Part shown: one piece after another, positions 11,928-58,188 of the stretch
How the letters are laid out: the number at the start of each line of letters is the position of its first letter
Position numbering within the stretch: position 1 is the first letter of the stretch
Assembly (NCBI GenBank): GCA_028710695.1
Contig: JAQTTP010000001.1
Location: 140,559 to 204,558 of the forward strand
Source of the DNA: Candidatus Iainarchaeum sp.
GTDB lineage: Archaea; Iainarchaeota; Iainarchaeia; Iainarchaeales; 0-14-0-20-30-16
Direction: 5' to 3'
DNA: 64,000 nucleotides
The notes under the pieces: model-generated
Told to the model about the DNA's origin: nothing
The model's database searches: none
The model's input: the letters and a program-made list of their open reading frames with translations, nothing else
Translations under genes and position numbers: made by a program

Positions 11928-12000
<73 letters not shown>

Positions 12001-12120
12001 CTATGCCTTTCTTTTTCCAAAAAAGAAAGCCGTAAGTTCCCACAAAGAAAAAGGAACAAACTATATTTTATAATGACAAAAAATTTATATTACAAAGGTT
12101 TTATTCTTATGTGATAAGGT

Positions 12121-13787: not shown

Positions 13788-13888
13788 AAAATATCACTAG
13801 AAAACTATAGATATTAGGGAGGAGTTACTTTTTTAAATAAGAATGGTTTATTATATATGACTCTTATATGACTTTGGAGGTTATAATT

Positions 13889-26110: not shown

Positions 26111-26761
26111 ATGAACAAATTCATCTTTGACATGGACGGGACTCTGTATAATTTCAAAGATGCTATTCCTGGAAAGTTTTATGATACCGGTTTTTACAGT
26201 GATTTAAAAAAGAACATCTATTCTTATCTTGGAGAAAAAATGGGTTTTAATAGAGAAAGAATTGATAAAGAACTGGCTGTTGCGGTCAGAGACTTTAATG
26301 GGGAATATAGTTTATATTTTGAAAAAGTCCACGGGATAGACAGGTATGAGTATTTAAGTAAAGTATTTAGCTTGGATCCTGAAAAGCATATAGTAAAAAC
26401 AAAAGGACTTCCAGAGTTTTATGCTAAGATTAAGGACAGATCATTAATACTAACCACTGCGCCAAAATCCTGGGCAAAAAAGGTATTAACTTATTTAGAA
26501 ATAGTGGACTATGTTGGTGATAATTTAATAACTGGGGAACCAGATATTAGAAAGCCAAATCCTCTTGTATTTATTAATGCTCTAAAAATGCTTAAATCTG
26601 AACCAGAAAATACTTATTCTATTGGAGATCAAGAACATTCAGATATAATTCCCGCAAAGAATATTGGGATAAAAACAATAATTGTTGGAAAAAGTAAATC
26701 TGCAGATTACGAAGTTAAGGATACAAAAGAATTGATGAAACTGGTCGAGGAACTGTTATGA
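26111..26761 (+). CDS. HAD-superfamily hydrolase (nucleotidase/phosphatase-like)
   Basis: Motif I FIFDMDGTLYNF; motif III/IV (K..GDQEHSD). Confidence 0.75.
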   Translation: MNKFIFDMDGTLYNFKDAIPGKFYDTGFYSDLKKNIYSYLGEKMGFNRERIDKELAVAVRDFNGEYSLYFEKVHGIDRYEYLSKVFSLDPEKHIVKTKGLPEFYAKIKDRSLILTTAPKSWAKKVLTYLEIVDYVGDNLITGEPDIRKPNPLVFINALKMLKSEPENTYSIGDQEHSDIIPAKNIGIKTIIVGKSKSADYEVKDTKELMKLVEELL

Positions 26762-30906: not shown

Positions 30907-31251
30907 TTACCTAATTATTTTCTCTGTTTTTAGATTCAGAATCCTGCAAGCATGTAAAAGATTGTAATCATCACTGTGTAAAGTGGCTTTTTTTTCTAAG
31001 GCAAGAGCAATAACCTCTATGTCTGTTTCGGAAAGTTTTAGCTTGTTCTTTTTCTTGATTTCTTTTACTTTTTTTACGCTCTCCTCAGAAGGGTCTTGGA
31101 TTTTTAGTTTTCCTATAGAGATTGCATTATTTAATTTGGTTCTGAATTCGAAATCCTTTATTTCTGAGATAACGGAATTTGTAATATAAGCCTCTGTTTC
31201 TATTGGCCCGAAATTGTTTAGTATCGCAGAAGTATCAAAAACATTAACCAT
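30907..31251 (-). CDS. PIN-domain nuclease (VapC-like)
   Basis: N-terminal VFDTSAIL, central SETDIEVIALAL and C-terminal LHSDD acidic residues, typical of PIN domains. Confidence 0.6.
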   Translation of the reverse strand: MVNVFDTSAILNNFGPIETEAYITNSVISEIKDFEFRTKLNNAISIGKLKIQDPSEESVKKVKEIKKKNKLKLSETDIEVIALALEKKATLHSDDYNLLHACRILNLKTEKIIR

Positions 31252-31342
31252 ATTACAAAGAAGAACGAAATAGAATATAAATTAAATACCACACATTTGC
31301 GCAAAAGAAACCTTTTTATACTGTTTGTGTGGTATTGATAAT

Positions 31343-32224
31343 ATGCAATTAGTTACTAAAGGGATTGGAAAAGGCAAAGTATATTATTTACATCATACCA
31401 GAAGGGAAGGGAAGGAGTACAAAAACTATGACCTATATCTTGGAAAAGTACTGCCTGGAGACCTAGAATTTAGAAAATATGCCTTTTTTGAAGAGGTTTA
31501 TGCTGATGTATTTAAGGAAATAGTTCGGATTAAGGAAAAAATAAAAAAAGAAGAAAAAAATATGCCGCTCTCTGTAGAAAAGAAGAACTTATTTCAATTT
31601 GGAATTAAGTTTACATATAATACAAATAGAATTGAAGGCAGCACACTAAGCATTAAAGATACTAAAGACGCAATAGAAGATAATATCTTGCCAGATCGTA
31701 AACCAATATCAGATGTAATTGAAGCAAAAAAACACCAAGAACTATTTTTAAAAATAATTGAATCAAAAGAAGACGTAAGTTACTCAAGCATTTTATATTG
31801 GCATAAATTTTTATTTACTGAAAGCAAGGGGGATATCGCAGGGAAAGTTAGAACTTATCCTGTGTGGATTTCAGGATCCAAATTTAACCCCCCTGGACCA
31901 AATGAGGTTGACTTTGAACTTAAGGATTTTTTTAAATGGTATGAAAAAAATAAACAAAAACTAGATCCAATTATTTTATCGTCTTTAGTACACTTTAAAT
32001 TTGTGTCTGTGCATCCTTTTGGAGACGGAAACGGAAGAATTTCAAGGCTTATGATGAATGCAGTTTTAAATAGATTTAGATATCCTTTATTTATAATAGA
32101 TTACAAAAATAGACGTGGATACTATAATGCTTTGGAAAAGTCTAATGTAGAAAATAATGAACTACATTTTGTGGCTTGGTATTTGAAAAATTATTTGAAA
32201 TATTTGAAGAGTGATAATAAATGA
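31343..32224 (+). CDS. Fic-family protein (AMPylase-type Fido domain)
   Basis: Canonical Fic motif VHPFGDGNGRISRL (HPFx[D/E]GNGR). Start at ATG 31343. Confidence 0.8.
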   Translation: MQLVTKGIGKGKVYYLHHTRREGKEYKNYDLYLGKVLPGDLEFRKYAFFEEVYADVFKEIVRIKEKIKKEEKNMPLSVEKKNLFQFGIKFTYNTNRIEGSTLSIKDTKDAIEDNILPDRKPISDVIEAKKHQELFLKIIESKEDVSYSSILYWHKFLFTESKGDIAGKVRTYPVWISGSKFNPPGPNEVDFELKDFFKWYEKNKQKLDPIILSSLVHFKFVSVHPFGDGNGRISRLMMNAVLNRFRYPLFIIDYKNRRGYYNALEKSNVENNELHFVAWYLKNYLKYLKSDNK

Positions 32225-36462: not shown

Positions 36463-37671
36463 TTGTACATGCATTTTATAAAATACGGGCATCTTGTAAA
36501 ATCAAAATTTGGGGTAATCCTTCTTGCAACCTTGATTTGGCTTGCAGCAGATAGAATGCTGGAATATGTAATGCCACTATATCTGGAAGGTATTGGGAAA
36601 TCTTATTTTGAAATTGGTTTGCTTTTGTCATTGACTGCTTTGGGCGGACTTTTATTTGATTGGCCATTAGGAAATTTGTCTGATGCAACAAGTAGAAGAA
36701 AGATAATGTTTACAAGTGTGATTTTATCAATAATTGCTTCGGCCCTTATTTTTATATTTGAAATAAATTGGGTTTTGACAATATTGATTTTGGTTTGGAG
36801 TATTGCATACCAAATGTGGTGTGTTCCGCGTGATGCTTATCTTGCAGCACATACAGACCACAACAAAAGGTCAAGAGAATATGGCCTGTTTAATGAAGTT
36901 GTGGATATTGCGGAAACAATAGGTCCACTAATCTGTGGTGCTTTGCTTCTATATTTGGGTTATAGTGGGATAGTAAGTATTTATGCAGTGATGCTTGGAA
37001 TTGCTGCTTTGATAATATTATTTTTCATTGCTGAAACAGACCACCGGTCTATGCTTAAAGCAATTCCCCAAAGTTTTAAATTTTCTGCTTTTATAAGAGA
37101 TTTAAAAGAGTTGAAGTATCTTGGTTCATTTGGATTATTGCTATTATTTTATTCTTTTAGTTTCATGGCTTTAGATAATGTTATTTTCTTGTTTGAGCCA
37201 CTTTTTTGTACATCTGGTGGGCTTGGTCTTTCACTTTCTCTCGCAGGTCTATTGATGGCATTCTTTTCAATACCTGGAATTCTATTTTCATATTTGTTTG
37301 GACTGATTGCAGATAAAATTGGAAAAAAGAAAGTGCTTTTTGCAGGAATGATTTGTATTGGTTTAAGTTTGATTCTTTTTGTGAGTACAAAAAATATTGT
37401 TTTACTATTTGCGTTTGCATCCTTATATTCAATAGGAGCGGCAATGTTCCTTCCATCTCTGAATGGGCTTATTGTTGACTTGTCATTTGGACATCAAAAA
37501 GGAAAAATTGTTGGGCTTTGGGATTCTTTTACAGATTTGGGATATTTTATTGGTCCACTTATTGGCGGAATAATTGCGGAATTTTATGGCCTGAGGGAAG
37601 TATATATTTCTTTGGGAGTGTTTTTTATTGCTATAAGCCTATTGATTTTTTTCTTTGTTAAAAGAAAGTAA
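36463..37671 (+). CDS. MFS-type transporter
   Basis: 12 predicted TM helices; D-R/K motif region (LGNLSDATSRRKIM). Confidence 0.65.
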   Translation: MYMHFIKYGHLVKSKFGVILLATLIWLAADRMLEYVMPLYLEGIGKSYFEIGLLLSLTALGGLLFDWPLGNLSDATSRRKIMFTSVILSIIASALIFIFEINWVLTILILVWSIAYQMWCVPRDAYLAAHTDHNKRSREYGLFNEVVDIAETIGPLICGALLLYLGYSGIVSIYAVMLGIAALIILFFIAETDHRSMLKAIPQSFKFSAFIRDLKELKYLGSFGLLLLFYSFSFMALDNVIFLFEPLFCTSGGLGLSLSLAGLLMAFFSIPGILFSYLFGLIADKIGKKKVLFAGMICIGLSLILFVSTKNIVLLFAFASLYSIGAAMFLPSLNGLIVDLSFGHQKGKIVGLWDSFTDLGYFIGPLIGGIIAEFYGLREVYISLGVFFIAISLLIFFFVKRK

Positions 37672-37867: not shown

Positions 37868-39175
37868 ATGGCTGGAAAGATTGAATGGTATCATGAATTT
37901 GTGAATAAAAAATATAACCCCAAACCAAATGATGTTAAAGTACTTTTTAAATACAAACCTGCAGAAGGTATGACTAAAGAAGAAGTAATTGGAAGGGTTG
38001 CTTCTGAGAGCTCGTCAGGAACCTGGACAACACTTGCCAATAGACCAAAGCTTTTGAAGAAGGTAATGGCTTATGGTTATGATTATGATAAAGACTATGT
38101 GAAAATAGCTTATCCAAGAATTTTATTTGAAGATGGCTCTGTTCCTTGTATGATGTCTGGAATAGCAGGAAATATTTTTGGGATGAAAGCAGTAGAAGGA
38201 TTGAGACTGCAAGATGCAGAGCTTCCAATGGATTATGTTAAAGGTTTTAAAGGCCCCAAATTCGGACAAACTGCAATACAAAAAATCTTTAAGAGAAAGC
38301 ACGGCCCAATAACTTCTGTTGTACCTAAACCGAAAGTGGGCTATACTTCTAAAGAGCATGCTTATTTTGTTGCAAAGCAGGTTTGGAGTGGTGGAATTGA
38401 TTGTGTTAAAGATGACGAGAATTTAACAAATCAAAAGTTTAACAAATTTGCAGATAGGGTGAAATATCTTGCAAAGGTTAGGGACCAAGTAATGAAAGAT
38501 ACAGGGGATATCAAAGATGCTTTCATTAACTGTACTTCTCCAACTCTAAAAGAAATGGAAAAAAGAGTAAAAATGGTTCATGATTATGGATTTAATTATT
38601 TTATGTTGGATTTAGTAGTGGGCGGTTTTACTGCTGTTGGAACTGCAGTGGAATTGAGCTATGACTATAAAATGGCAATACATGGACACAGAGCTATGCA
38701 CGCGGCCTTTACAAAAAATCCAGATCACGGAATTTCAATGCTTTTCTTAGCAAAGCTTTACAGGCTTATGGGTGTGGATAATATTCACACAGGTACTGTT
38801 GTTGGAAAGCTTGACGGCAATGAAAAAGAGATAATGGCAATGAAAGATATGATTATGGAGCCAAAGGTTGATGAAATAAAAAACATAAGGCTGGCTCAGA
38901 AATGGGGCAAGATAAAACCATCATTACCAATATCTTCCGGGGGTTTACATCCTGGATTGATTCCTGCGGTTTTTGATGTTTATGGGACAATGAACATAGG
39001 TCTACAATTAGGTGGTGGAACACAAGGCCATCCAGATGGAATTGAGGCAGGGTCTAGAGCAATGATGCAAGCAATAGAGGCTCACAGACAAGGAATAGAA
39101 TTGAAAGATTATGCTAAGAACCACAAAGAATTAGCAAGAGCATTAGAGAAATGGGGTGTCATGAAGCCTATTTAG
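37868..39175 (+). CDS. rbcL: ribulose-1,5-bisphosphate carboxylase large subunit, archaeal form III
   Basis: GTWTTL, CVKDDENL, HGHRAMHAAF, GGGTQGHPDG active-site blocks; 435 aa; no small-subunit gene. Confidence 0.9.
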   Translation: MAGKIEWYHEFVNKKYNPKPNDVKVLFKYKPAEGMTKEEVIGRVASESSSGTWTTLANRPKLLKKVMAYGYDYDKDYVKIAYPRILFEDGSVPCMMSGIAGNIFGMKAVEGLRLQDAELPMDYVKGFKGPKFGQTAIQKIFKRKHGPITSVVPKPKVGYTSKEHAYFVAKQVWSGGIDCVKDDENLTNQKFNKFADRVKYLAKVRDQVMKDTGDIKDAFINCTSPTLKEMEKRVKMVHDYGFNYFMLDLVVGGFTAVGTAVELSYDYKMAIHGHRAMHAAFTKNPDHGISMLFLAKLYRLMGVDNIHTGTVVGKLDGNEKEIMAMKDMIMEPKVDEIKNIRLAQKWGKIKPSLPISSGGLHPGLIPAVFDVYGTMNIGLQLGGGTQGHPDGIEAGSRAMMQAIEAHRQGIELKDYAKNHKELARALEKWGVMKPI

Positions 39176-40273: not shown

Positions 40274-41059
40274 CTACTTTTTAGACTTGCTGTTCCAAAG
40301 GGCATAGAAATAGTCTCTGTGTGTTTGCGCCATTTCTTTGCTGTGTATCATAAAAGCAATAATATTTTCTTTTGATACTAACTTTAGAACTACTTTGTCC
40401 CCATATATCCAAACAGTTTGAGGATTGGTAAAAGTTTTTGGAAGATATTTTACAGAAACAAATTTTTCGGTTATTAATTTTTTGTAATATTTTTTCCCAG
40501 TCTCTGTTGGTGTCACTAGAACTTTTCTATGGATTTTTTTGTTAATTCTCTTTTTATTAAATATATCTAAATATATTGGATAAAGATCTGGCGCATTTCC
40601 TGATGACCCAATAGTAAGCCATTCTTTTCCAGTGTTTATTATATCGTCAAAGATTGCTTTTATTCCTTCTTTACCTTCATATGTTTCTGAAAATATGTTT
40701 GTTTTCTTTACTTTGTATTTTTCTTCTAAAGCAGAAATTTCAGTATCAATATTGTTATTATACTCCTCTAAAATGTGTTTAATTTTTTGTGGATTTGTTG
40801 CTATAAAATATTTTTTGTTTCCTTTAGAAAAATGAGACACTAAGCCTTTTTCTATTAACCTGTTTAAGGCATCATATGTCGCCCTTCTATGTAGATTTGT
40901 TTTTTTTGATATGTTTGTTGCAATGTCATTTTCTACAGCAATTAAGTAATAATAACATTTTATTTCATTAGTAGTTAATCCTATTTGCTTAAGGCCTGAA
41001 AAATTATCCATATTGGTATTTATGTCCGAAAAGATTATATTTGTGGTGCTATTAAGCAC
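40274..41059 (-). CDS. TrmB-family transcriptional regulator
   Basis: N-terminal wHTH (LTTNEIKCYYYLIAVENDIATNISKKTNLHRRATYDALNRLIEKGLV) plus a C-terminal ligand domain. Divergent from a binding-protein gene. Confidence 0.65.
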   Translation of the reverse strand: MLNSTTNIIFSDINTNMDNFSGLKQIGLTTNEIKCYYYLIAVENDIATNISKKTNLHRRATYDALNRLIEKGLVSHFSKGNKKYFIATNPQKIKHILEEYNNNIDTEISALEEKYKVKKTNIFSETYEGKEGIKAIFDDIINTGKEWLTIGSSGNAPDLYPIYLDIFNKKRINKKIHRKVLVTPTETGKKYYKKLITEKFVSVKYLPKTFTNPQTVWIYGDKVVLKLVSKENIIAFMIHSKEMAQTHRDYFYALWNSKSKK

Positions 41060-41098
41060 ACCATTAATATAAATAGGGGGTCATGTCAGAAAACTAGT

Positions 41099-42187
41099 AT
41101 GAAGAAATTGATTTGGATAGTTGGGCTATTATTGATTTTGGTGCTTGTTTTTGTAACATATTACTCTGTACAAAAAAATGCAATTACTGTGGGCGTAATA
41201 ATCCCCCTTTCTGGCTCTGTTGCTGATTTGGGTTTACAGTCAAAAAACGGATTTGATCTTGCAATAAATGAGGGCATAGAATTTGAATTTATTTTTGAGG
41301 ACTCTGTAGGAGACAAAACTGCAGCAATTAACGCTTATAATAAATTAGTATCTGCAGATAATGCAAAGATAATAATTTGTCAGTTGGGCGGGGTATGTGA
41401 TGCTTTGGCAGACATTGCTAAAGATAATGATGTTATTCTGTTAGGTCTGACGTCAAATGACGATTTTGCTGTAAAAGGAAAAAATATTTTTAATGTGAGA
41501 GCAAGTGGTTATGGTATTGGAAAAAGGCTTGCAGAATATTTAATAAAAGAAAATTATAATTCTGTTGCTGTTTTATATAATGAGGAACCAACACATGCCG
41601 CAATTTTTAAAGGATTTAAAAATTATTTTGAAGAAAAGGGCGGTAAAGTAGTTTACTCTGGTTTACATAAAAGTGATGAAAAAGAGTTTAAAACTGAATT
41701 GCTTAAGGCAAACAATGAAAAACCCGAAGGGTTTGTGTTATTTTCAAGATATGGAAACCTGATTAATATTATAAAACAAAAAGAAGAATTAGGAATAAAC
41801 TTGCCAATATTTTCTAATACTGGTGTTGAATCTAAAGAGTTTATTGATTCTCTTGGCCCACTTGCAAATGGAATAATCTTTTCAAGTGCTTCCTTTGACT
41901 ATGATTTAGATTCAGATAAAGTAAAATATTTTATTAGCTTACATGAAAAAATGTTTGGAACAGATATCATTCCATTTTATACTGCTAATGCCTATGAAGT
42001 TGTAGACCTATTAAATTACCTAAAAAGTAAAGGCTGTAACACAACAAAAGAAATAATTTCTTGTTTAGAAAATTTTGGGGGCTATGAAAGTGTATTGGGA
42101 AAAATCTCATTTGATTCTGATGGTGGCGTAATTAGAAACTACCTGATTTATCAAATACAAGATGGCGCATTTGTTAAATTAGAATAG
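41099..42187 (+). CDS. LivJ/LivK-type (type I periplasmic-binding-fold) solute-binding protein with N-terminal membrane anchor
   Basis: Signal anchor, then ITVGVIIPLSGSVADLGLQSKNGFDLAINE, the Peripla_BP_6 N-terminal signature. Confidence 0.75.
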   Translation: MKKLIWIVGLLLILVLVFVTYYSVQKNAITVGVIIPLSGSVADLGLQSKNGFDLAINEGIEFEFIFEDSVGDKTAAINAYNKLVSADNAKIIICQLGGVCDALADIAKDNDVILLGLTSNDDFAVKGKNIFNVRASGYGIGKRLAEYLIKENYNSVAVLYNEEPTHAAIFKGFKNYFEEKGGKVVYSGLHKSDEKEFKTELLKANNEKPEGFVLFSRYGNLINIIKQKEELGINLPIFSNTGVESKEFIDSLGPLANGIIFSSASFDYDLDSDKVKYFISLHEKMFGTDIIPFYTANAYEVVDLLNYLKSKGCNTTKEIISCLENFGGYESVLGKISFDSDGGVIRNYLIYQIQDGAFVKLE

Positions 42188-42541
42188 TTATTCTCTCCAT
42201 TCTGTGTCTTCTGAGAAATTGGCTTTTGTAACAAACAAAAGTAAACCTTGTTTTCCTGCTTTTACTTCATGCCACTCATTTGGCTTTACAATGAATAGAA
42301 CTCCTTGCTTTAGTTTTATAACTTGCTTTCCAGATTTAACAGAACCAGTTCCTTTTAGAACATATTCTGCTTCTTCTTGGCCTTTGTGATAATGTGGTCT
42401 TACAGTTGTGTTTGGCTTTATTTTTATATATTGTGTTTTGCAGAATTTTCCTTGCGCATTTTCTGTTGTCATGAATACTTTTCTAAAGTATCCATAATTT
42501 GTTTTTTGCCATTTCATCTTGCTTGGATTTATCTCTTGCAT
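42188..42541 (-). CDS. cupin-domain protein
   Basis: Cupin motifs PHYHKGQEEAEYVLKGTG and G..F.V.P.EWHEV. Confidence 0.65.
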   Translation of the reverse strand: MQEINPSKMKWQKTNYGYFRKVFMTTENAQGKFCKTQYIKIKPNTTVRPHYHKGQEEAEYVLKGTGSVKSGKQVIKLKQGVLFIVKPNEWHEVKAGKQGLLLFVTKANFSEDTEWRE

Positions 42542-42550
42542 ACTATCACT

Positions 42551-43510
42551 TTAGAAAGGTGCAAAGTTTAGTTTAAGTTCTTTTTTAATATCCAAAACAG
42601 AATAATTCTTTATGTATTGCGGGAAATAATTCTTGAATGATTTGATTATAAAATCTGTTTCATCATCACTTGCAGTTTCAATCTCTAATTCCACATTATG
42701 GCTTCCAATACAATTTACATAATACAAAATTGGTGGGTGCCCTTGTGCAAATATTTCCATGTCACGCAGAATCTTTTCGTTAAAGCTTTGTAATGTAAAT
42801 AGAATCATTTGGTATGTTCTACCTATTTTCTTTGGATCTATTGTAATCTTTGGCATTATTACTCCTAAGCTTTTTAGTTTTTTCATTCTGTTTCTTATTG
42901 TATCCGGTTTTATTTTTGTTTTTTTGCTTAATTCAATATAACTTGCACGTGCATTTAAGGCGAGGGCTTTAATGATCCTTTCATCTTTATTATCTATATT
43001 TACTATTTCTTGATCGCCTAAATAGATAAACTCTTTTTTTTCTATATTTTCTACTAAATAGGATCTAGTAAATAAAGGCGCTTTTGTTAAAATTACCAAG
43101 TCCTCGGAATAAATATATACTCCAAATTTATTTTTTAGTCCATTATAGAAATTTTTGTAATCTTTTAATTGTTTTGCTAAAAATGAGATAATATAATCAT
43201 AATTACCTCTTGTGGATACTGCCCAAAAAACGCCTTGTGTTTTTTTAATAAACTCCTCAAATTCTGCTTCTTTTTCAGAGTTGATGTTTTGTAACCGCAA
43301 AAATAGTTTGTAGTGTGTGTTTCCAAGTTTTGCTAAATTGACCATTAGCACAAATTTATCAATTATGTTATTTTTTTGTAGTCTTTCAATTCTATATGCT
43401 ACTGCCTGTTCAGATAGTTTGACTTTTTTAGCAATTTGCTTATTTGTTTGTCTACAATCTGCGTCAAGCTCATATAGAATTCTGTTGTCATACTTATCTA
43501 AAATCTGCAT
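42551..43510 (-). CDS. tandem Lrp/AsnC-family transcriptional regulator (two HTH-RAM units)
   Basis: Two repeats of the HTH_AsnC pattern (DNRILYELDADCRQTNKQIAKKVKLSEQAVAYRIERL.. and DERIIKALALNARASYIELSKKTKIKPDTIRNRMKKL..), each followed by a RAM-like domain. Confidence 0.7.
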   Translation of the reverse strand: MQILDKYDNRILYELDADCRQTNKQIAKKVKLSEQAVAYRIERLQKNNIIDKFVLMVNLAKLGNTHYKLFLRLQNINSEKEAEFEEFIKKTQGVFWAVSTRGNYDYIISFLAKQLKDYKNFYNGLKNKFGVYIYSEDLVILTKAPLFTRSYLVENIEKKEFIYLGDQEIVNIDNKDERIIKALALNARASYIELSKKTKIKPDTIRNRMKKLKSLGVIMPKITIDPKKIGRTYQMILFTLQSFNEKILRDMEIFAQGHPPILYYVNCIGSHNVELEIETASDDETDFIIKSFKNYFPQYIKNYSVLDIKKELKLNFAPF

Positions 43511-43636
43511 ATATTTGTATAATAACTAAAATATATATAAATATTTCTGTTTTATTCCAAATTTTATTAAAAGGCAATATATTGTCAGAAAAACCCAAGT
43601 TAAATATACTGGATAATACTAATTGGGGGTTTTCTA

Positions 43637-44749
43637 ATGAATAAAAATTATTTGTTTTTTGGAGTAATTGTAATAGTAATTCTTGCTCTGATAATTGGGT
43701 TTTCCATTGGTGGCAATAATGATACCTTAAAAGTGGGATTAGTTGCACCAATGAGTGGAGATGTTTCTATCTGGGGCACTAATGTTTTAGTTGGTGCACA
43801 AATTGCTATTGATGAGTTTAACGCCAAGGGCGGACTAAATGGGCAAAAGATAGAATTAATTGTTGAAGATGGGCAATGCTCTGCAGAAGCGGGGGCTAAA
43901 GCATATAGTGCTTTACTTAATGGTAATGATTTAGTTGCTATGCTTGGACCTGTTTGTTCTGCAGAGGCAAGTGCGGGATTGCCACAAGGGGTGGTAGCAA
44001 ATATGCCAACTGTAATTGCAACAGCATCTGCACCTGAGTTAACGGCTTTGGGAGACAATATATTTAGAGTGTATCCATCTGATACCTTGCAAGGTGGATT
44101 TGCTGCAGAATACGTATATAATGTTTTGGGAAAGAAAAAAGTTGCAATTATTTATGCAAGCAATGCTTGGGGTCAAGGTGTTGCAAATAATTTTAAAACG
44201 GCATATCAAAAATTGGGTGGTGAAATAGTTTATTTTGATAAAGTATCACAAGATGAAGTTGAGGTAAAAGATGTAATTAACAAATCAAAATCAACAAATC
44301 CAGATATGTTGTTTTTGCCAATATATCCTAAAACAATAATGGCAATATTAAAAACAAAAGATGAATTGAATTGGAATATTCCTGTATTGGGTGGGGATGC
44401 TACTCTTTCTGAAGAGGTTATTAAAAGTAATTTAGGAAATGAAATTTTGTTCACACAACCACAATTCAATATCTCTGAAGAACTAAAAGAAAAAGTAAAA
44501 AAGAAGAATGGGGAAAACTTTATGATAAATGTTGGTTCTTCATTTGGTTATGATGCTGCAATAGTTCTTTTGACTGCATTAGAAAATGCAGATTCCTTAA
44601 GTCACGAGGACGTAATAAAAGAATTGGCAAAGACAAAAATCAGCGGAATTTCAAATTCTGTAATTGAATTTGATGCAGAAGGAGATTTAAAAACAGGGAC
44701 TTTTGAAGTTCAAATAATAAAAAACAATCAAGCAATTCCGGCGGAATAA
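43637..44749 (+). CDS. LivJ/LivK-type solute-binding protein with N-terminal membrane anchor (paralog 2)
   Basis: LKVGLVAPMSGDVSIWGTNVLVGAQIAIDEFNAKGGLNGQKIELIVED..; C-terminus nearly collinear with paralog 3. Confidence 0.75.
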   Translation: MNKNYLFFGVIVIVILALIIGFSIGGNNDTLKVGLVAPMSGDVSIWGTNVLVGAQIAIDEFNAKGGLNGQKIELIVEDGQCSAEAGAKAYSALLNGNDLVAMLGPVCSAEASAGLPQGVVANMPTVIATASAPELTALGDNIFRVYPSDTLQGGFAAEYVYNVLGKKKVAIIYASNAWGQGVANNFKTAYQKLGGEIVYFDKVSQDEVEVKDVINKSKSTNPDMLFLPIYPKTIMAILKTKDELNWNIPVLGGDATLSEEVIKSNLGNEILFTQPQFNISEELKEKVKKKNGENFMINVGSSFGYDAAIVLLTALENADSLSHEDVIKELAKTKISGISNSVIEFDAEGDLKTGTFEVQIIKNNQAIPAE

Positions 44750-44770
44750 TTTCCGCCCCTCTTTTTTTAT

Positions 44771-45733
44771 TTAGAACGGAACAAAGTTTAGTTTTAATTC
44801 TTCTTTTACTGTAAGTACTGTATAGTTCTTTATATACTTGAAAAATTGTTTTCTGAAATCATTAATTATTTGCTCAGTTTCTTCATTGTTTTTTGTTTCC
44901 ATTTCTAATTCTATGTTGTGATTTCCAATACAATTAATATAGTAAATAATCTCTGGATATCTTGTTGCAAAAGACTGCATTTCTTTTTGTGTTCTTACAT
45001 CAAAACTCTGCAATGTTATTGTGGCCAAGGTATATGTTCTTCCAATCTTTTTTTCATCAATAGTTATTTTTGCTCCAGTTATTGCCCCGAGTTTTTTTAA
45101 TTTGTCATATCTGTTTTTGACTGTGTCGGGGGTTATCCCAGTGATTTTACCTAGTTCAATATAATTTAATCTTGCGCTGTTTCCTAACGCGTGTAATATT
45201 TTTTTGTCTTTTTCATCCAGTATTACCGTTTCTCTTATTCCCCCATATAATATTTCTCTTTTTTCTGGGCTGTTTTTTAGATATGATCTGTTAAGTAAAG
45301 TTCCGTGTGTAAGCAGAGAAAGTTCTTCAGAATAAACATATGGCCCCCAAATTTCTTTTATTTTGTCATACATCTCTTTATAATCTAATAAATCTTTTGC
45401 AAGATATGAAATCACGTAATCATACAAACCTAAAGTTTTTCCAGCCCAAAAAATATTGTCTTCTTTTTTAATATAATTTATGAACTCTTGCTCTTTTTCT
45501 GGCGATATATTTTGTAGTTTTAGATATAATTTATAATGTGTATAACCCATTCTTCGGGGGTTAGTCATAAGTACAAATTTTTTTATTACTCCTTCCTTTA
45601 GCATTTTGTCTATTCTATATGCTACTGTTTGCTCTGAAACCTTTGCTTTTTTTGCAAGTTGTTTATTGGTTTGTCTTGAATTTAGATCTAGTTCATAAAG
45701 TATAGAATAATCTGTAGGGGTTAAATTAATCAT
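44771..45733 (-). CDS. tandem Lrp/AsnC-family transcriptional regulator (paralog of 42551-43510)
   Basis: Same double HTH-RAM layout; ends ..EELKLNFVPF versus ..KELKLNFAPF in the paralog; start at ATG 45733. Confidence 0.7.
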   Translation of the reverse strand: MINLTPTDYSILYELDLNSRQTNKQLAKKAKVSEQTVAYRIDKMLKEGVIKKFVLMTNPRRMGYTHYKLYLKLQNISPEKEQEFINYIKKEDNIFWAGKTLGLYDYVISYLAKDLLDYKEMYDKIKEIWGPYVYSEELSLLTHGTLLNRSYLKNSPEKREILYGGIRETVILDEKDKKILHALGNSARLNYIELGKITGITPDTVKNRYDKLKKLGAITGAKITIDEKKIGRTYTLATITLQSFDVRTQKEMQSFATRYPEIIYYINCIGNHNIELEMETKNNEETEQIINDFRKQFFKYIKNYTVLTVKEELKLNFVPF

Positions 45734-45843
45734 AACATAGAATTTGTAGGCAAGATTTATTAAATATTTCGGAAATATTCTAAATTTGTCTGTTTGGTAC
45801 ATAAATATTCCTTATAATCAGAATGTAATTGGGGGTATCTATT

Positions 45844-46944
45844 ATGAATTTTAAAGCAGTTTTGTTTGGAGTAATAGCATTAATTATCTTGGCAGTAATA
45901 ATTGGTTTTTCTGTTGGTGGAGATAAAGATGTGATAAAGATTGGGATCATTGCACCACTGACTGGCGATATTGCAAGCTGGGGCCAAAATGGGCTTGCAG
46001 GAGTTGAATTGGCTGTAAAAGAAATAAATGACGCAGGCGGAATAAATGGATCTTTAGTTGAATTAATTGTTGAAGATGATAAAAGCACAGATGCAGTAAA
46101 TCCAGCAAATAAATTAATTAATATAGATAATGTGGATGCATTAATATTTGCGGGGGGTTCAAATCAAGCTCAACCAATAATACCAATAGTAACTGAAAAA
46201 CAAATTCCTTTGATTTTGACAGTTGCGTCTAATCCTGATCTTACTTTGTCATCTGATTGTGTATTTAGAGTTTATCCTTCTGATACTGCACAGGGGAAAT
46301 TTGCTGCAGAATATTTGTACAACAACCTTAATGTAAAAAACGTAGCAGTGATATATGAACAAAATCAGTGGGCAACAGGAGTAAAAGAGGTCTTTGAAAA
46401 AGGGTACAAAGGAACAATCGAAGAGGTAATTATTTTACAAAAATACCAACAAGATTTTAAGACTGAACTAACAAAATTGGATAGTCTTGACGTAAACTAT
46501 GTTTATGTTTTGGTATATCCTGAAACTGGAATGGCATTCTTAAACCAATACAAAACATTTGGATCTGACAAGAAAATATTTGGCGGAGATATGTTTGATA
46601 GTGGAGAATTAATAACAAGTGGATTTGCGGATGGGGTGTTATATACTGTGCCTAAAGTTACAACACCGGAATCTTTTAAAGAGGAAATAAAAACAATGCC
46701 TGCTTTTTCTACTTTAGAAATATCCTTGGCTGCGCCTTTGGGTTACGATGCAGCAAAGGTTCTGCTAACTGCTTTGGAAAATGTGGCTCCTTTAAGCTCA
46801 GAAAATTTGATAATTGAATTAAAGAAAACAAGTATTGCGGGAATGTCAAATTCTCTTATCGAGTTTGATAATCATGGAGATTTAAAAACCCCTGGGTTCG
46901 AAGTAAAAATGATAAATAACAAGGAAGCAGTTCCAGTTAAATAG
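45844..46944 (+). CDS. LivJ/LivK-type solute-binding protein with N-terminal membrane anchor (paralog 3)
   Basis: IKIGIIAPLTGDIASWGQNGLAGVELAVKEINDAGGINGSLVELIVED. The AATTGGGGG RBS region is shared with paralog 2. Confidence 0.75.
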   Translation: MNFKAVLFGVIALIILAVIIGFSVGGDKDVIKIGIIAPLTGDIASWGQNGLAGVELAVKEINDAGGINGSLVELIVEDDKSTDAVNPANKLINIDNVDALIFAGGSNQAQPIIPIVTEKQIPLILTVASNPDLTLSSDCVFRVYPSDTAQGKFAAEYLYNNLNVKNVAVIYEQNQWATGVKEVFEKGYKGTIEEVIILQKYQQDFKTELTKLDSLDVNYVYVLVYPETGMAFLNQYKTFGSDKKIFGGDMFDSGELITSGFADGVLYTVPKVTTPESFKEEIKTMPAFSTLEISLAAPLGYDAAKVLLTALENVAPLSSENLIIELKKTSIAGMSNSLIEFDNHGDLKTPGFEVKMINNKEAVPVK

Positions 46945-46949
46945 GGGGC

Positions 46950-47591
46950 TTATTTTCTCCCCTTATTCTCTTTTATTGTTTTCATAATACTGCGGATGTA
47001 TTCAGCTCGGTTCTTTGAAATTGTATTAATTTCAGATTGTGGTTGAATCATAATATGCACTGGAATCTTATTGAAAATAATTTTTACATAAATTTGGTTT
47101 GTGATTTTGCTGTCTGTGTCTCTGTGTTTTTGGACGGACCCGAAAAAGTTTTCTGGATTTTTCATTCCTTTTATTTTTTGTAATTTATATTTTTTTAAAA
47201 TTAGATCTAAAACTTTGTGGCAGTCTTCCTCCGTTTTTGGTAGAATTTTTATTCCAATGAAATCTGTTAAAGCGTTTTTTAATTCCTTGCCAACAATTTT
47301 ACAGTAGTAATATTTTCGATTTATGCTGTGAATAGTTTTTATTCTTGAAATATAGTCACAAGAAATTCCAGTAAATTTTATTGCAAATTTTAGTTCTTTT
47401 AGAAGCTTTTTTTTGGTGGCAAATAACTCTTTATGGTTTCCTTTTATAGACCTAATTAGTTTGTATTGCTTTGGAATGGTTAGGCGTAAAATTAGGCTTT
47501 TTATGTGGCCAAGAAACATCTCTTTTTTGTGTTTTAGATAAATCCATAAAAAGGAATACATGCTGGGCTCCTTTTTTTTATTTCTATTCAC
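46950..47591 (-). CDS. divergent RelA/SpoT-like (RSH synthetase-fold) nucleotidyltransferase
   Basis: Order of blocks ISRIKT..S..K / DFIGIKIL / DCHKVLDLI / ENFFGSVQKH / VHIMIQPQSE / AEYIRSI mirrors RxKxxxSxxxK / DxxGxRxx / DxY / GYxSxH / ExQIRT of (p)ppGpp-synthetase domains, but with substitutions at catalytic positions. Confidence 0.4.
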   Translation of the reverse strand: MNRNKKKEPSMYSFLWIYLKHKKEMFLGHIKSLILRLTIPKQYKLIRSIKGNHKELFATKKKLLKELKFAIKFTGISCDYISRIKTIHSINRKYYYCKIVGKELKNALTDFIGIKILPKTEEDCHKVLDLILKKYKLQKIKGMKNPENFFGSVQKHRDTDSKITNQIYVKIIFNKIPVHIMIQPQSEINTISKNRAEYIRSIMKTIKENKGRK

Positions 47592-48702
47592 CTAAACTTA
47601 AGTCCCAGTATGTGTATTCATAACCCGATTCTGGATCTTGCGGTGGATTCCAAACTTGGGTTTTTTGGCCAACGGCCCTGTGCCCTTTAGCATTACCACC
47701 AACATGTACTTGTAAATTCTCATATTCTTTGCTTTTTCCTAGTTGTTGATCAGGGCTTTCATCACAATACTCATTTCTTGTAGGTGATGGCGTTTTATCT
47801 ACATTTAACTCTGCAGATATAAATGCTGCCCCGCCATATTGGTCATCATCTGTAAAACCAAATAAACTTTGGTTCTCTGATTCCATGGTGGCAGTTCCAT
47901 TACCTTCTTTGGTTAAAATAACACAGCCGGTATCTACAACCATTTTATAAGTCCACATAAATTTGCCATTCTCGAAATAATAACTTTTTGTACCTACTGT
48001 TTCGCCTAAAACACTATATCTTTTTAATGTTCCACCAACGATGTCTACTTTTGTAAAATAATAAGTATCTTCTGCTTCAGATAAATATTCATATTTAATT
48101 CTACTACAAAGATCTCCTGCACCACTTTGTTTGGTTTCTGCTAATTTTTTTAAATCGTCAAATCCTAATTCGTCACACAAAATTACAATTTCTTTTAATC
48201 TATTTTTGCAAATATATATGTCATTTATTTCTTCTGTTAGTCTATTTTTAATTGTATCTAAAACTATTTTATCTAAATTTGGCAACAATCCAAAACTTTG
48301 TAGTAGTCGTAATGCGTCAATTAACATGCTATTTGTTGAATTGGGGTCGCTGATAATACTTTCAGCCCATTGCTTGATTTTTGCCTTTGTTTGTGCATCA
48401 TATTTATCTGTGTCTGGTAAGCCCCAAATTTTTGCTAAACCTAATGCATCTATCATTTGTTGAGGTGTTGATTTGGGATTATTAAAAGTATCTTCTACAT
48501 TGCCCATAGTATTAGCTTGATTTGCATTCATTTGATCTTTTGATGAATCTCCTGTGCTTGGATAAGTCGCATCATCACCACTTGTTAAGCCAGATTTTGT
48601 TGTACCTAAATTGCTTTCATCAGTTCCTGGAGCAACACAGCCAGACAAAAATATAACTGATACAAAAAAACAGAGAATCAAAGAAATAATTATTTTATTC
48701 AT
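47584..48702 (-). CDS. secreted lipoprotein, Ser/Thr/Asp-rich linker then globular domain
   Basis: Start set at ATG 48702. Signal peptide ends in lipobox LSGC. The 3' end overlaps the RSH-like gene start by 8 nt. Confidence 0.5.
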   Translation of the reverse strand: MNKIIISLILCFFVSVIFLSGCVAPGTDESNLGTTKSGLTSGDDATYPSTGDSSKDQMNANQANTMGNVEDTFNNPKSTPQQMIDALGLAKIWGLPDTDKYDAQTKAKIKQWAESIISDPNSTNSMLIDALRLLQSFGLLPNLDKIVLDTIKNRLTEEINDIYICKNRLKEIVILCDELGFDDLKKLAETKQSGAGDLCSRIKYEYLSEAEDTYYFTKVDIVGGTLKRYSVLGETVGTKSYYFENGKFMWTYKMVVDTGCVILTKEGNGTATMESENQSLFGFTDDDQYGGAAFISAELNVDKTPSPTRNEYCDESPDQQLGKSKEYENLQVHVGGNAKGHRAVGQKTQVWNPPQDPESGYEYTYWDLSLGE

Positions 48703-48755
48703 TATACAAATACTAAATATAACTTTAAATAAGTATCCCAGGCTATTTTTATTAG

Positions 48756-48976
48756 GCAGTAGTGGTCCAGTGGTAAGATAAGAGCTTCCCAAGAACCCTT
48801 TTTAGAAACAAAAAGAAACTTTTGCCCTGGCAAAAGCGTTCTTTAGGTCCAGAAGAAATTTTTGGAAAACAAAAATTGGCTTCTTGAAAAGCGTTCACGG
48901 AAAAAGGAGTGCATAAGGCACCCCAGAATAGGTTCGGAAAGAGCTTTTGACCCGGGTTCAATTCCCGGCTACTGCA
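48756..48976 (+). tRNA. tRNA-Gly (anticodon CCC) interrupted by a ~149-nt intron at the canonical 37/38 position
   Basis: 5' exon GCAGTAG-TG-GTCCAGTGGTAAGAT-A-AGAGC-TTCCCA (48756-48792); 3' exon A-GCTTT-TGAC-CCGGG-TTCAATT-CCCGG-CTACTGC-A (48942-48976). Acceptor halves are perfectly complementary. Intron ends GAACC.../...GGTTC can pair as the central helix of a bulge-helix-bulge. Confidence 0.65.
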
Positions 48977-49673: not shown

Positions 49674-49838
49674 ATGAAATCATTTGTGTTAATATTTGGG
49701 TTGTTGGCATTTTTGTTATTAATTGCAACTATTTTTGTTGGTGTTTTTGGAACCAAATTTAAGATAAAGTCAATATATCACAAGATTTTTGGATTGTTGA
49801 CATTGATTTTTACAATTCTGCATGTTGCATTTGTTTAA
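49674..49838 (+). CDS. 54-aa two-helix membrane mini-protein
   Basis: GGAGGGG RBS before ATG 49674; MKSFVLIFGLLAFLLLIATIFVGVFGTKFKIKSIYHKIFGLLTLIFTILHVAFV. Confidence 0.35.
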   Translation: MKSFVLIFGLLAFLLLIATIFVGVFGTKFKIKSIYHKIFGLLTLIFTILHVAFV

Positions 49839-50998
49839 TCTTTTGCAAAGAAAATATATCCCAGGCTTGCAATTGCTGCAAGAATGAAACAGATAGTAAA
49901 CGGATAAAAATTTAAAATGAAAATTAGCATAAGAAGTGGATAAAATAAAACCCTAATAAAATTGAAATAAAAGTCTCGAATAACTATGAATTTGAAGTAC
50001 CCTTCTTTTTCTGCAAGATCATAGTTTTTTGCGTCATAAGGGATATAAAGAACCTTTTCTGCAACATGTTTGTAAGACTCTATAAAAAATATTTTTGTTG
50101 CTGTGTCTGCGAAAATTCTTGCTACCCATGCAAAGAAGTATAGTGCAGTTCCGAATTTTATCATAAGTTCTTTTTTGTGCTTGTCTGTAATTTTTCCAAT
50201 AAAGTAGAATAGGGCAAGAGATAGTAGCATTGTAAGGGTGACAATTATTCCTGTTTTTTGTGTTGAAACTAAAATAACAATTAGAAATATTGGCCAAATT
50301 ATTTTTCCAACAATTGTTTCAAATGAATAACCTATAAAAGTTACTAGTATTCCTGCGTATTTTTTTGTTAAAAATTCTTTTAACATGTCTTTTGATTTAA
50401 AATTGAGTTCTGTGTAGCAATCGGGAGTAAACATTAAAACTAAAGAACCTAAGATTAATATCATTGAACCAATGATGTACAAGACAACAAAGCCGTAATA
50501 ATATGCAATAAATCCACCTAATACTGGGCCAAGAACAGAAACAATCATTGCTAATGCACTTAAAAAAGAAATTTCTTTGCCTCTATTCTTTCTATCTGAG
50601 TGATTAATGTAGTTCACATGATATCCATTATAGTAGAATGCTCTTCTTATCGCCCAAATTAAAGGGAGAATAACAAATACTGCCCAACTTGTTGTTATGA
50701 AGTATAATCCGATGTAATATAATATTGAGAGGGGGGTAGAAACTAGGATTGCGTGCTTAGCTCCAATCTTTGCAACTGCTTTTGCAACAGGATATGCAAA
50801 AATAACATAGAATAAAGCATCTAAAAGGAAGAAAAGAAGGATTAGGGGGATTGAATAGCCTAAATTATAGAAATAAATTGGAACGAAAATTCCAATCATG
50901 CTTTCTGCAAATGTTGTGATTGTTATTGCAAGATAGAAAAGGTTTAGTTCTTTGTTTTTCAAAAATGGAATTACATGGAAGTTACTAAACAAAGACAT
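49835..50998 (-). CDS. MFS-type transporter
   Basis: 12 TM helices; MFS motif region (RRAFYYNGYHVNYINHSDRKNRGKEI between TM2/3-like loops). Confidence 0.6.
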   Translation of the reverse strand: MSLFSNFHVIPFLKNKELNLFYLAITITTFAESMIGIFVPIYFYNLGYSIPLILLFFLLDALFYVIFAYPVAKAVAKIGAKHAILVSTPLSILYYIGLYFITTSWAVFVILPLIWAIRRAFYYNGYHVNYINHSDRKNRGKEISFLSALAMIVSVLGPVLGGFIAYYYGFVVLYIIGSMILILGSLVLMFTPDCYTELNFKSKDMLKEFLTKKYAGILVTFIGYSFETIVGKIIWPIFLIVILVSTQKTGIIVTLTMLLSLALFYFIGKITDKHKKELMIKFGTALYFFAWVARIFADTATKIFFIESYKHVAEKVLYIPYDAKNYDLAEKEGYFKFIVIRDFYFNFIRVLFYPLLMLIFILNFYPFTICFILAAIASLGYIFFAKD

Positions 50999-56886: not shown

Positions 56887-57390
56887 TTGTTGATTAGTAG
56901 AAAACCCTTAGCCAAAAGAAAGCCGCCAGTACCACAAGTAAGGCACATTGTTAAAAATGAAACAACAGTGGTGTATGCGGGTAGAAAAACCCCTTATGAA
57001 TTATGGGCTAAACGTAGAAATGCGGTATCAAAGATTCTTGGCTTTAAAGAAGCAGATAGGCAGTGGGATAGAGATTACTTTGGGCTTGCTGTCCCTCACC
57101 ATTTTGGTTCTTATGGGCAATTAGTTCTTAGACCTTGGTTCGTAGAAGGGAAAAGATTTGCATATGTTGAAGGTATAAGAGTAAAAGATTGGTACGAACA
57201 TAGAGGTCTTGCAACAAGGATGTATAAAAAAGCAGAAGAGATTGCAAGAAAACAGGGCTTGCCAGAAATTAGGGTTTGGTTGGTGAATAATATTGAAAGG
57301 CAAGAGAAGATTTTGACTGAACTTGGCTGGAAAGAATTTGCAAAATTAAGTGATAAAAATGGAAAAATGTGGAGTAAAATGTTGATTTAA
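56887..57390 (+). CDS. GNAT-family N-acetyltransferase
   Basis: GIRVKDWYEHRGLATRMYKKAEEIARKQG is GNAT motif A (R/Q-x-x-G-x-G/A); elevated GC. Confidence 0.6.
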   Translation: MLISRKPLAKRKPPVPQVRHIVKNETTVVYAGRKTPYELWAKRRNAVSKILGFKEADRQWDRDYFGLAVPHHFGSYGQLVLRPWFVEGKRFAYVEGIRVKDWYEHRGLATRMYKKAEEIARKQGLPEIRVWLVNNIERQEKILTELGWKEFAKLSDKNGKMWSKMLI

Positions 57391-58103
57391 CTCTTCGCAA
57401 TATTCCAAAGAAGCTCAAAGAAGTTTCTATTTGTTTCTACTGCTTTTTTGCTTTTTACAACAAATGCTAATGGTTGTTCTCCCCACACTATTGTGATAAA
57501 CTTGTCGCCATAAACCATGTTGGTTGAAGGATAATCATATTTTTCTGGAAGAAATTTCATTATGAAATTTTTTGTGGCTTCTTTAATTTTTTGCTTTTTT
57601 ATTTTTTTATTATAAATTATTTTTAGAATTATTTTTTTTAATTCTCTTTTTTGGTGCCATTTAACATAATAAACTGGAAATAGCTCTTTAAATCTGCTTT
57701 GTGCACCGAAAATAAAAATCTCTTTTGAATTTAAAGCATCGTCGAAGATAAATTTTATTCCTTTCTTGCCACGGAATATTGTTGCATTATCATCTTTTTG
57801 TGTATCATAATATGTAGACTTTAGTTCGCCTAGGATATCCATTAACTTATTCTGTTTTTCGTCAAGCATTTCTTCTAATATCTTTGGGTTATTTGGCTTA
57901 AACATTTTTACATTATTTTCTAGAACATAGCTTACTAGTCCTTTCTCTACAAGCCTTTCTAATGCATCGTAAACATTTGAGCGGTTTGCCTCGCACTTGT
58001 TTGTTATTTTACTTGCTTTTGCTTCTCCCAAAGAAAGCAAGGCGAGATAGACTTTTGATTCTGTCTCACTTAGTCCAAATTCTTGTAAAGTATTTTCTTG
58101 CAT
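57387..58103 (-). CDS. TrmB-family transcriptional regulator (paralog of 40274-41059)
   Basis: LSETESKVYLALLSLGEAKASKITNKCEANRSNVYDALERLVEKGLV wHTH; divergent from a fourth binding-protein gene. Confidence 0.65.
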   Translation of the reverse strand: MQENTLQEFGLSETESKVYLALLSLGEAKASKITNKCEANRSNVYDALERLVEKGLVSYVLENNVKMFKPNNPKILEEMLDEKQNKLMDILGELKSTYYDTQKDDNATIFRGKKGIKFIFDDALNSKEIFIFGAQSRFKELFPVYYVKWHQKRELKKIILKIIYNKKIKKQKIKEATKNFIMKFLPEKYDYPSTNMVYGDKFITIVWGEQPLAFVVKSKKAVETNRNFFELLWNIAKS

Positions 58104-58188
58104 ATAATTTGATAGTTACAAAATGTATTTATTGCTGTTGGTATGCCAACGACAAGTTAAGAAATACTTGAAAAGATAAAGTATTTAT

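Follow-up and report, generated by a model that had tools for sequence, protein, structure and literature searches.

Divergent regulator–binding protein cassettes in a Candidatus Iainarchaeum genome are probable accessory modules of a Liv-type ABC importer

Introduction

In Escherichia coli, the substrate-binding proteins (SBPs) LivJ and LivK share the translocator LivHMGF. Control of livJ and livK by Lrp is classical (Haney et al. 1992, as cited in the review PMC8050422), and SBPs serve signalling proteins as well as transporters (PMC8050422). Importers of the Liv/HAAT type with several SBPs are a known element, as is one-component control by regulators of the Lrp and TrmB families. Here we analyze four cassettes, each pairing a regulator gene with a divergently oriented gene for a Liv-family SBP, in a 64-kb stretch of DNA from Candidatus Iainarchaeum sp. 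(contig JAQTTP010000001.1, positions 140,559–204,558, assembly GCA_028710695.1). We refer to this whole stretch of 64,000 nucleotides as the window.

An initial annotation of the window took three of these cassettes for possible sensor or scavenging receptors rather than importer parts. Comparison with related genomes leads us to a different reading. The four cassettes are probably self-contained, individually regulated accessory SBP modules of a Liv/HAAT ATP-binding cassette (ABC) importer (Transporter Classification 3.A.1.4 type) whose translocator, LivH/M/G/F, is encoded outside the window. Less familiar are the strict grammar of one regulator for one SBP, its recurrence across DPANN archaea and bacteria of the candidate phyla radiation (CPR), and the detachment of the cassettes from a translocator in this lineage. 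Our literature searches returned no specific description of the cassette grammar or of Iainarchaeota Liv systems.

Results

Four divergent cassettes in native archaeal DNA

The cassette genes, the spacers between them and one intervening gene are as follows.

40274–41011, minus strand: TrmB-like regulator 1 (Pfam PF01978, TrmB helix-turn-helix (HTH), E 5.6e-12); open reading frame (ORF) extendable to a GTG at 41059
41012–41098: divergent spacer 1, with an imperfect inverted repeat
41099–42187, plus strand: SBP1 (Peripla_BP_6, Pfam E 6e-45; PDB match 3td9, E 2e-17)
42188–42541, minus strand: small cupin, 117 aa (Pfam Cupin_2, E 1.7e-12)
42551–43510, minus strand: tandem Lrp/AsnC regulator 2 (two HTH_AsnC-type stretches, Pfam E 3.9e-24)
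43511–43636: divergent spacer 2, with a conserved block and a Shine–Dalgarno (SD)-like site
43637–44749, plus strand: SBP2 (Pfam E 7e-48; PDB 3td9, E 8e-28; LivJ/LivK, E ~3e-23)
44771–45733, minus strand: tandem Lrp/AsnC regulator 3 (two HTH_AsnC units by Pfam), paralogue of regulator 2
45734–45843: divergent spacer 3, with a palindrome inside the conserved block and an SD-like site
45844–46944, plus strand: SBP3 (Peripla_BP_6, Pfam E 2e-44), LivJ-like, paralogue of SBP2
57387–58103, minus strand: TrmB-like regulator 4 (Pfam TrmB, E 3.5e-18)
58104–58188: divergent spacer 4, with a palindrome
58189–59274, plus strand: SBP4 (Peripla_BP_6, Pfam E 1.4e-40; PDB match 4gnr, E 3e-24)

The three cassettes that had been proposed at 40274–46944 are borne out by their ORFs, each assignment being backed by Pfam, and a fourth, consisting of a TrmB-like regulator and SBP4, lies beyond that span at 57387–59274. 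None of the eight cassette ORFs is truncated, and their domain scores are retained. The first TrmB gene had been drawn as 40274–41059; the gene stands, but its GTG start at 41059 probably does not. Regulator 1 probably begins at the ATG at 41011, because the Pfam match opens at residue 23 of the long ORF and because the long-ORF sequence is missing from a protein collection in which its neighbours are present. Cassettes 2 and 3 are duplicates, as had been suggested. Their regulators are 55% identical and both end in ELKLNF(A/V)PF, and SBP2 and SBP3 align end to end at 41% identity (E 1e-88) and both contain the C-terminal block by which the likeness was first noticed. SBP1, with only ~23–26% identity to the other SBPs, is a distant paralogue.

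The cassettes belong to the DNA around them by composition: GC content is ~32% throughout the window, and 0.31 in the cassettes against 0.32 for the window as a whole. The 64 kb carry core archaeal genes, including those for the proteasome alpha subunit, SBDS, exosome Rrp4/41/42 and eIF6, ribosomal proteins L37ae, S19e and L31e, and FtsY, aTrm56, LonB, the primase large subunit and form III RuBisCO. These genes mark the window as part of the chromosome of a DPANN archaeon (Iainarchaeota/Diapherotrites). Proteins of the source metagenome-assembled genome (MAG; 'Candidatus ainarchaeum sp.') carry the accessions MDD4983408 to MDD4983437, and an identical 4.2-kb piece of the window, with SBP2, occurs in Logan run SRR22315508 (contig L001).

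The cupin gene separates cassettes 1 and 2; it follows regulator 2 after 9 nt on the same strand and is probably co-transcribed with it as one operon. It is kept on L001 and missing from the related cassettes on metagenome contigs L002 and L011.

The binding proteins are Liv-family proteins with two kinds of pocket

All four SBPs match PF13458 with 140–165 bits (cutoff 31.7) over profile positions ~2–342 of 343. Their best solved relatives, by PDB matches, are amino-acid-binding proteins of Liv importers, and NCBI names SBP1, SBP2 and SBP3 'ABC transporter substrate-binding protein'. The initial annotation had allowed that the SBPs might instead be of an ANF-receptor or amidase type; ANF_receptor does appear in Pfam, but as side-hits only, and Peripla_BP_6 scores far higher.

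We mapped the ligand pockets by residue alignments to E. coli LivJ and LivK and to homologues from Thermotoga, Brucella and Streptococcus, together with a 23-sequence alignment, so that the assignments below are alignment-based. In LivJ and LivK, positions 18, 79, 102, 150, 202 and 226 hold the main chain of the amino acid, that is, the alpha-amino and alpha-carboxylate groups. SBP2 keeps equivalents of Trp18, Cys78-Ser79, Ser102, Trp150, Tyr202 and Asp226, and SBP3 has a similar pocket (W, S, S, W, Y, D) but with Gly-Ser at 78-79. Relative to LivJ, both proteins carry Ser for Thr102, Trp for Tyr150 and Asp for Glu226. The same pocket residues are found in SBP2/SBP3 homologues encoded inside complete operons. 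Because the main-chain-binding residues are conserved, the ligands of SBP2 and SBP3 are most likely alpha-amino acids. The SBP1 pocket has Gly for LivJ Ser79 and Thr for Glu226, and SBP4 lacks both the acidic residue of LivJ and the aromatic residue at position 150; SBP1 and SBP4 may bind something other than alpha-amino acids.

The difference between the two pairs follows the regulator family, and the same contrast appears in related genomes. Across 80 LivH-anchored loci (described below), the column of Glu226 is acidic in 8/9 SBPs paired with an Lrp/AsnC regulator and in 10/41 paired with a TrmB-like one (Fisher's exact p ~6e-4, in a test that ignores relatedness and on an alignment at low identity). 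This suggests that regulator type tracks ligand class, with Lrp/AsnC regulators beside amino-acid pockets and TrmB-like regulators beside others.

Each SBP has a hydrophobic stretch of ~19–22 residues behind a short K/N-rich N-terminus, with no Cys lipobox. This uncleaved-looking anchor had been cited in favour of receptors that stand apart from importers. It is not diagnostic: SBPs P0005, P0011 and P0018, which are encoded in complete operons with two permease and two ATPase genes, have the same lipobox-free N-terminus, and the anchor is therefore no argument for a non-transport role. A signal peptide of class III (type IV pilin-like), the kind known from the Sulfolobus bindosome, was considered too and rejected by eye, as no [KR][GA] cleavage motif precedes the hydrophobic stretch.

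Related cassettes are building blocks of Liv loci

We write loci with S for an SBP, P for a permease, A for an ATPase, and T<S> or L<S> for a divergent pair of a TrmB-like or tandem AsnC regulator with an SBP. The closest relatives of SBP2 (55–75% identity) lie on short metagenome contigs of the same low-GC lineage; L002 and L011 show the same pair of minus-strand tandem AsnC and plus-strand SBP genes in the same syntenic neighbourhood. The next relatives, at 31–49% identity, are in complete operons. Locus L009 reads SBP-(ORF)-LivH-LivM-LivG-LivF, and L004 and L006 have similar operons; L008 has three SBPs, then LivHMGF, then a further SBP and a divergent TrmB-SBP pair. The SBP at the head of this L009 operon (S-P-P-A-A) shares 49% identity with SBP3. 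LivH of L009 is 74–83% identical to proteins labelled Aenigmatarchaeota, Woesearchaeota, Pacearchaeota and Nanoarchaeota, so Liv transporters are common and unusually conserved in DPANN.

We used a scan of a genome collection anchored on LivH, in which the best 80 loci, from DPANN archaea and CPR bacteria, had their ORFs classed by our own hidden Markov models (HMMs). Half of these loci hold two or more SBPs. Divergent regulator–SBP cassettes occur 55 times, in 29 of the 80 loci (46 with a TrmB-like and nine with a tandem AsnC regulator), in line with the earlier proposal that every SBP has its own dedicated regulator. In 16 of the 55, an ATPase or permease gene comes immediately after the SBP gene in the same orientation.

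Four of the 80 loci come from other Iainarchaeota. L068 (Ca. Iainarchaeum DeMMO3_25) reads LivH-SBP-LivM-[HTH, DUF7718]-tandem AsnC(−)-SBP(+)-LivG, with the cassette SBP abutting LivG. L023, also recovered as L094 (Ca. ainarchaeum STA_60, run SRR22315509), reads P-S-S-P-S-S-L<S>-T<S>; L018 (STB_123) reads S-P-S-S-P; and L026 (Diapherotrites MAG LFW-252_2) reads S<L>-P-P-A-A. A further JGI contig, L097, has T<S> T<S> P P A A. Every regulator and SBP of the window has its best relatives beyond its own lineage in Liv loci. Cassettes of this kind thus belong to the standard make-up of Liv loci among these organisms, interleaved with LivH/M/G/F in L023/L094, L068, L026 and many DPANN and CPR genomes. 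This arrangement speaks against the initial view that they are sensor or scavenging receptors instead of importer parts.

Several features of these loci stand apart from the question of the translocator. A small HTH gene (Pfam HVO_A0114/HTH_20) lies on the opposite strand right after LivM at L023:13998-14764, L068:12140-12907 and L093:3886-4278, with a DUF7718 protein beside it in L023 and L068, where the two form a conserved pair. LivH proteins of CPR/Patescibacteria are 71–79% identical to those of DPANN archaea (Aenigmatarchaeota, Woesearchaeota, Nanoarchaeota; for example, L025, L034 and L054 versus L015, L016 and L043), and the T<S> grammar is common to CPR and DPANN Liv loci (L013–L092). 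These likenesses suggest that whole Liv loci were recently exchanged between the domains, or that some contigs were mis-binned.

The cassettes themselves also seem mobile. The cassette at L011:270-2458 is a mosaic when compared with window positions 44770–46050 and 43637–44749: its DNA matches that of the window at 82% identity across the spacer and the opening ~200 nt of SBP3, and the body of its SBP is nearer to SBP2 and the L002 SBP (54–60%) than to SBP3 (42%). L002 and L011 align at a mean of 92% identity in a single 8.8-kb alignment across the cassette and the downstream region. Judged from these alignments, cassettes at a single chromosomal site apparently undergo recombination or exchange.

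Regulators and spacers

Regulators 2 and 3 contain two complete units of HTH plus RAM domain per chain; residues 4–131 and ~167–291 each align to the whole of LysM, AsnC, LrpA or FL11. Both proteins fall below all NCBIfam equivalog cutoffs, and no specific orthologue is therefore assigned. Siroheme decarboxylase (AhbA/B, NirDL) was rejected as an identity for the tandem proteins, its match (E 1e-6) being below cutoff and compared with E 1e-20 for LysM/AsnC/LrpA.

The TrmB-like regulator 1 has an N-terminal winged HTH followed by an uncharacterised C-terminal domain of ~150 aa. Its identity to the TrmB-like partners of SBPs in Liv loci is 33–37%, and regulator 4 is 54% identical to the SBP-paired TrmB-like gene of Liv locus L044. 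Over the C-terminal half of these regulators, where TrmB/TrmBL1 have their sugar-binding domain, Pfam gave no hit at all. NCBIfam TrmB/TrmBL1 matches extend over ~residues 5–150 only, with 20–51 bits (cutoffs 500–650), and the PDB match to TrmB covers residues 5–134 only. We call the proteins 'TrmB-like' because the C-terminal effector domain is unmatched. At 13146–13787 on the minus strand lies the gene of a fifth protein with a TrmB HTH (213 aa, Pfam E 5.6e-8), divergent from a 173-aa ORF with no family match at 13868–14389 (plus strand); the pair at 13146–14389 has the layout of an SBP cassette with a different partner protein.

The sequence AATTGGGGG, which had been noted before both SBP2 and SBP3, is indeed there and nowhere else on the plus strand: its two copies, at 43621–43629 and 45827–45835, lie just upstream of the respective ATGs. 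It is an SD-like ribosome-binding site inherited by duplication, since many other genes of the window also have G-rich SD-like runs in front of them. For the same reason we rejected it as a special regulatory signal.

A search for palindromes common to the four divergent spacers, as proposed at the outset, succeeded for the two Lrp-type spacers, which share a block, and failed for the two TrmB-type spacers, each of which differs. Four homologous Lrp-type spacers (spacers 2 and 3 of the window and those of L002 and L011) have the common block TAAATATTTC(T/G)G...TATTC(C/T)AA. In spacer 2 the block reads TAAATATTTCTGTTTTATTCCAA (43538–43560), 28–50 nt upstream of the regulator ATG, and is a probable B recognition element (BRE)/TATA of the regulator gene together with an operator half-site. 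The block of spacer 3 contains a perfect 8-1-8 palindrome, AATATTTC-g-GAAATATT (AATATTTCgGAAATATT, 45763–45779). On the regulator strand, the Lrp-type block may be a BRE/TATA element overlapping an operator, an arrangement that would fit autoregulation. Spacers 1 and 4 have different palindromes that contain G+C in an AT-rich background: an imperfect inverted repeat, TTATATTTGTGGTG/CACCATTAATATAA, at 41035–41072, which is a candidate operator in spacer 1, and GTTGG-TATG-CCAAC at 58137–58150, which is a candidate operator in spacer 4.

The translocator and alternative explanations

The reading of the cassettes as importer modules has to be weighed against a set of absences, which count against it. 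The initial annotation had reported no ABC permease or ATPase in the window, and this holds throughout the 64 kb: a motif scan found no LSGGQ signature, our own HMMs found no match to LivH/M or LivG/F, and Pfam annotation of nearly every sizeable ORF yielded no ABC permease or ATPase. The related contigs L002, over 17.7 kb, and L011 also lack ABC genes. Where SBP-anchored loci extend far enough to either side, a permease is adjacent in 17/19, which makes four orphans in a row atypical.

We then searched an Iainarchaeal LivH profile against a collection of 5.8 billion proteins, in which other proteins of the window MAG are named. The three known Iainarchaeal LivH proteins are 88–95% identical to each other and are the only hits above 80% identity. 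No LivH of the window MAG is among the best 120 hits, which reach down to ~72% identity with one at 69%; the two labelled '[Candidatus ainarchaeum sp.]', MDD5163149 and MDD5148326, belong to other MAGs, the window MAG having accessions of the form MDD49834xx. With the search empty and other proteins of the MAG in the collection, the deposited MAG probably has no LivH at least ~72% identical to the queries, a conclusion that likewise weighs against a closely related translocator in this genome. The best 80 loci of the LivH-anchored scan contain no locus of the window genome, whose presence in that collection is unestablished, and a search for low-GC LivH loci of the window's own lineage found none. 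A scan of metagenomes anchored on the SBP2/SBP3 clade returned one close relative, L096 (3.9 kb), again with L<S> only. We considered whether STB_123 or STA_60, MAGs from the same run as the window MAG or its sister run, could be the window MAG, and rejected this on their differing accessions (MDD5148326/MDD5163149) and GC (0.39–0.42 versus 0.32).

Three options remain for the missing LivH: a more divergent permease, a gene missed by binning, or genuine loss. We prefer an importer encoded elsewhere despite the negative LivH search, because the prior from related loci is strong and eight genes are intact.

The last of these options leads to the alternative that survives best, although we regard it as rather unlikely. 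According to this explanation, the lineage of the window, L002 and L011 lost or never had LivHMGF, and the anchored SBPs are true orphan receptors that work without an ABC translocator, either as ligand sensors or as surface scavengers that concentrate host-derived metabolites near another carrier. The empty searches of the 64 kb and of L002 are what it predicts, as is the lack of a close LivH of the MAG in the protein database and among the best 80 loci, and SBPs are known to feed signalling proteins besides transporters (PMC8050422). Pfam, however, found no kinase, methyl-accepting chemotaxis protein (MCP)/chemoreceptor, GGDEF, AmiR, ANTAR or other signalling partner among the annotated ORFs of the window. 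In four other Iainarchaeota and in many DPANN and CPR genomes, such cassettes form a physical part of Liv loci, and eight intact genes with no function would be odd in a streamlined genome. The LivH negative, moreover, excludes only proteins at least ~72% identical and is blind to genes missing from an incomplete MAG. If the SBPs were orphan receptors after all, they could capture surface metabolites for another uptake route, hold ligands at the contact zone of a host-attached DPANN cell, and leave it to the Lrp and TrmB regulators to tune which receptor is displayed.

Decay is a highly unlikely explanation. Cassettes left behind by a lost transporter and on their way to becoming pseudogenes would account for the same absences, in the window and of a close LivH, but they would not be expected to look as these do: the eight ORFs are full length with domain scores kept, SBP2 and SBP3 have kept the ligand-contact residues of their relatives in complete operons, regulator 3 shares 90% identity with its orthologue on L011, and four spacers retain the promoter block. 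Even less credible is that the SBPs serve a nearby non-ABC carrier, such as the major facilitator superfamily (MFS) transporter at 36463–37671 or that at 49835–50998. MFS genes do lie within a few kilobases of the cassettes here, in L002 and in L011; they are neither co-oriented nor co-conserved with the cassettes across 80+80 loci, where homologues of the SBPs pair with BPD_transp_2 permeases instead, and we know of no Peripla_BP_6 protein that works with an MFS carrier. That assembly or binning placed cassettes of another organism in this contig can be practically dismissed, given uniform GC across the window, flanking core archaeal genes (form III RuBisCO, LonB, primase) and gene order syntenic with the independent assemblies L001, L002 and L011.

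Other genes of the window

Type III RuBisCO is encoded just upstream of the cassettes (37868–39175, plus strand), and an inosine-uridine nucleoside hydrolase 10 kb away (26758–27666, plus strand). A carbon route based on nucleoside salvage is described for DPANN and other archaea, and the two genes are consistent with it. Directly past SBP3, a 213-aa ORF (46950–47591, minus strand) has a sub-threshold RelA_SpoT match (E 6e-5, 23.7 bits; cutoff 27), followed at 47584–48792 (minus strand) by a 402-aa protein that matches no family and has a hydrophobic segment at its N-terminus; the two have counterparts on L002 at 67–74% DNA identity.

Two Fic/DOC-domain proteins are encoded within the 64 kb of this small genome (3477–3941, minus strand, and 31325–32224, plus strand), the second after a PIN-domain gene at 30907–31251. 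The Whirly family is known mostly from plants; a 142-aa protein encoded at 12121–12549 (plus strand) matches its single-stranded DNA-binding domain (PF08536, E 8.5e-13). Close by, a 216-aa ORF with a GTG start (11393–12043, minus strand) overlaps tRNA-Thr (11928–12001, minus strand), and in view of this overlap its 5′ end is probably spurious or wrongly started.

Discussion

Our analysis turns an apparent oddity of the window into a routine annotation: probable accessory SBPs of an ABC importer of the branched-chain/amino-acid type. We propose the following mechanism for the four cassettes. Each regulator, divergent from its SBP gene, would bind the AT-rich spacer and probably also regulate itself. 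The tandem Lrp/AsnC proteins would act as covalent 'dimers' of HTH and RAM units that most likely sense intracellular amino acids, and the TrmB-like regulators may sense another ligand through their C-terminal domain. Once exported, each SBP would be kept at the membrane by its N-terminal hydrophobic segment, or be cleaved behind it. Ligand binding would close it, as in other type I binding proteins, and it would dock on a common LivHM translocator. SBP2 and SBP3 would carry alpha-amino acids, and SBP1 and SBP4 other ligands, to that translocator.

Uptake of the Liv type is a route on which auxotrophic DPANN cells plausibly depend. Liv loci of DPANN and CPR organisms are built from repeated units of one regulator and one SBP that can be duplicated, recombined and moved, and the match between regulator and pocket offers an easy way to predict substrates and to select proteins for ligand screens. 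Should the transporter truly be missing from this lineage, the window would provide transporter-independent binding proteins in a reduced archaeon.

Among known systems, LIV-I/LS of E. coli is like the window cassettes in its SBP family (PF13458) and in the ligand-contact residues of SBP2 and SBP3, and in that several SBPs are expected per translocator and an Lrp-family regulator stands over SBP genes. It differs in that the window SBPs each have their own divergent regulator, the Lrp-type regulators being covalent tandems, and are N-terminally anchored rather than free in the periplasm, with translocator genes that are not adjacent. The TrmB trehalose/maltose system of Thermococcus/Pyrococcus likewise has a winged-HTH regulator of the TrmB family that adjoins, and is presumed to control, an ABC binding-protein gene. 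The window regulators, however, are ~240 aa long compared with 338 aa for TrmB and have no match to its sugar-binding C-terminal region, and their partner SBP is of the Liv family and not of the MalE type.

Orphan SBPs have a precedent in the tripartite tricarboxylate transporter (TTT)/Bug proteins of Bordetella and Rhodopseudomonas palustris, whose genes lie away from those of the membrane components and outnumber the transporters (according to references in PMC8050422). These belong to another SBP family, whereas the window genes have a dedicated regulator and a cassette that usually sits inside a transporter locus. AmiC/ANF-receptor sensors share the type I binding-protein fold with the window SBPs, which have ANF_receptor side-hits in Pfam. 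AmiC, however, is cytoplasmic and works with AmiR, and the window SBPs are single-domain proteins with export/anchor segments, no AmiR-like neighbour and a far higher Peripla_BP_6 score. The multi-SBP Liv loci of DPANN and CPR organisms match the window in the T<S>/L<S> grammar, in SBP and regulator families and in anchors; their cassettes stand among LivH/M/G/F, whereas those of the window, L002 and L011 stand alone.

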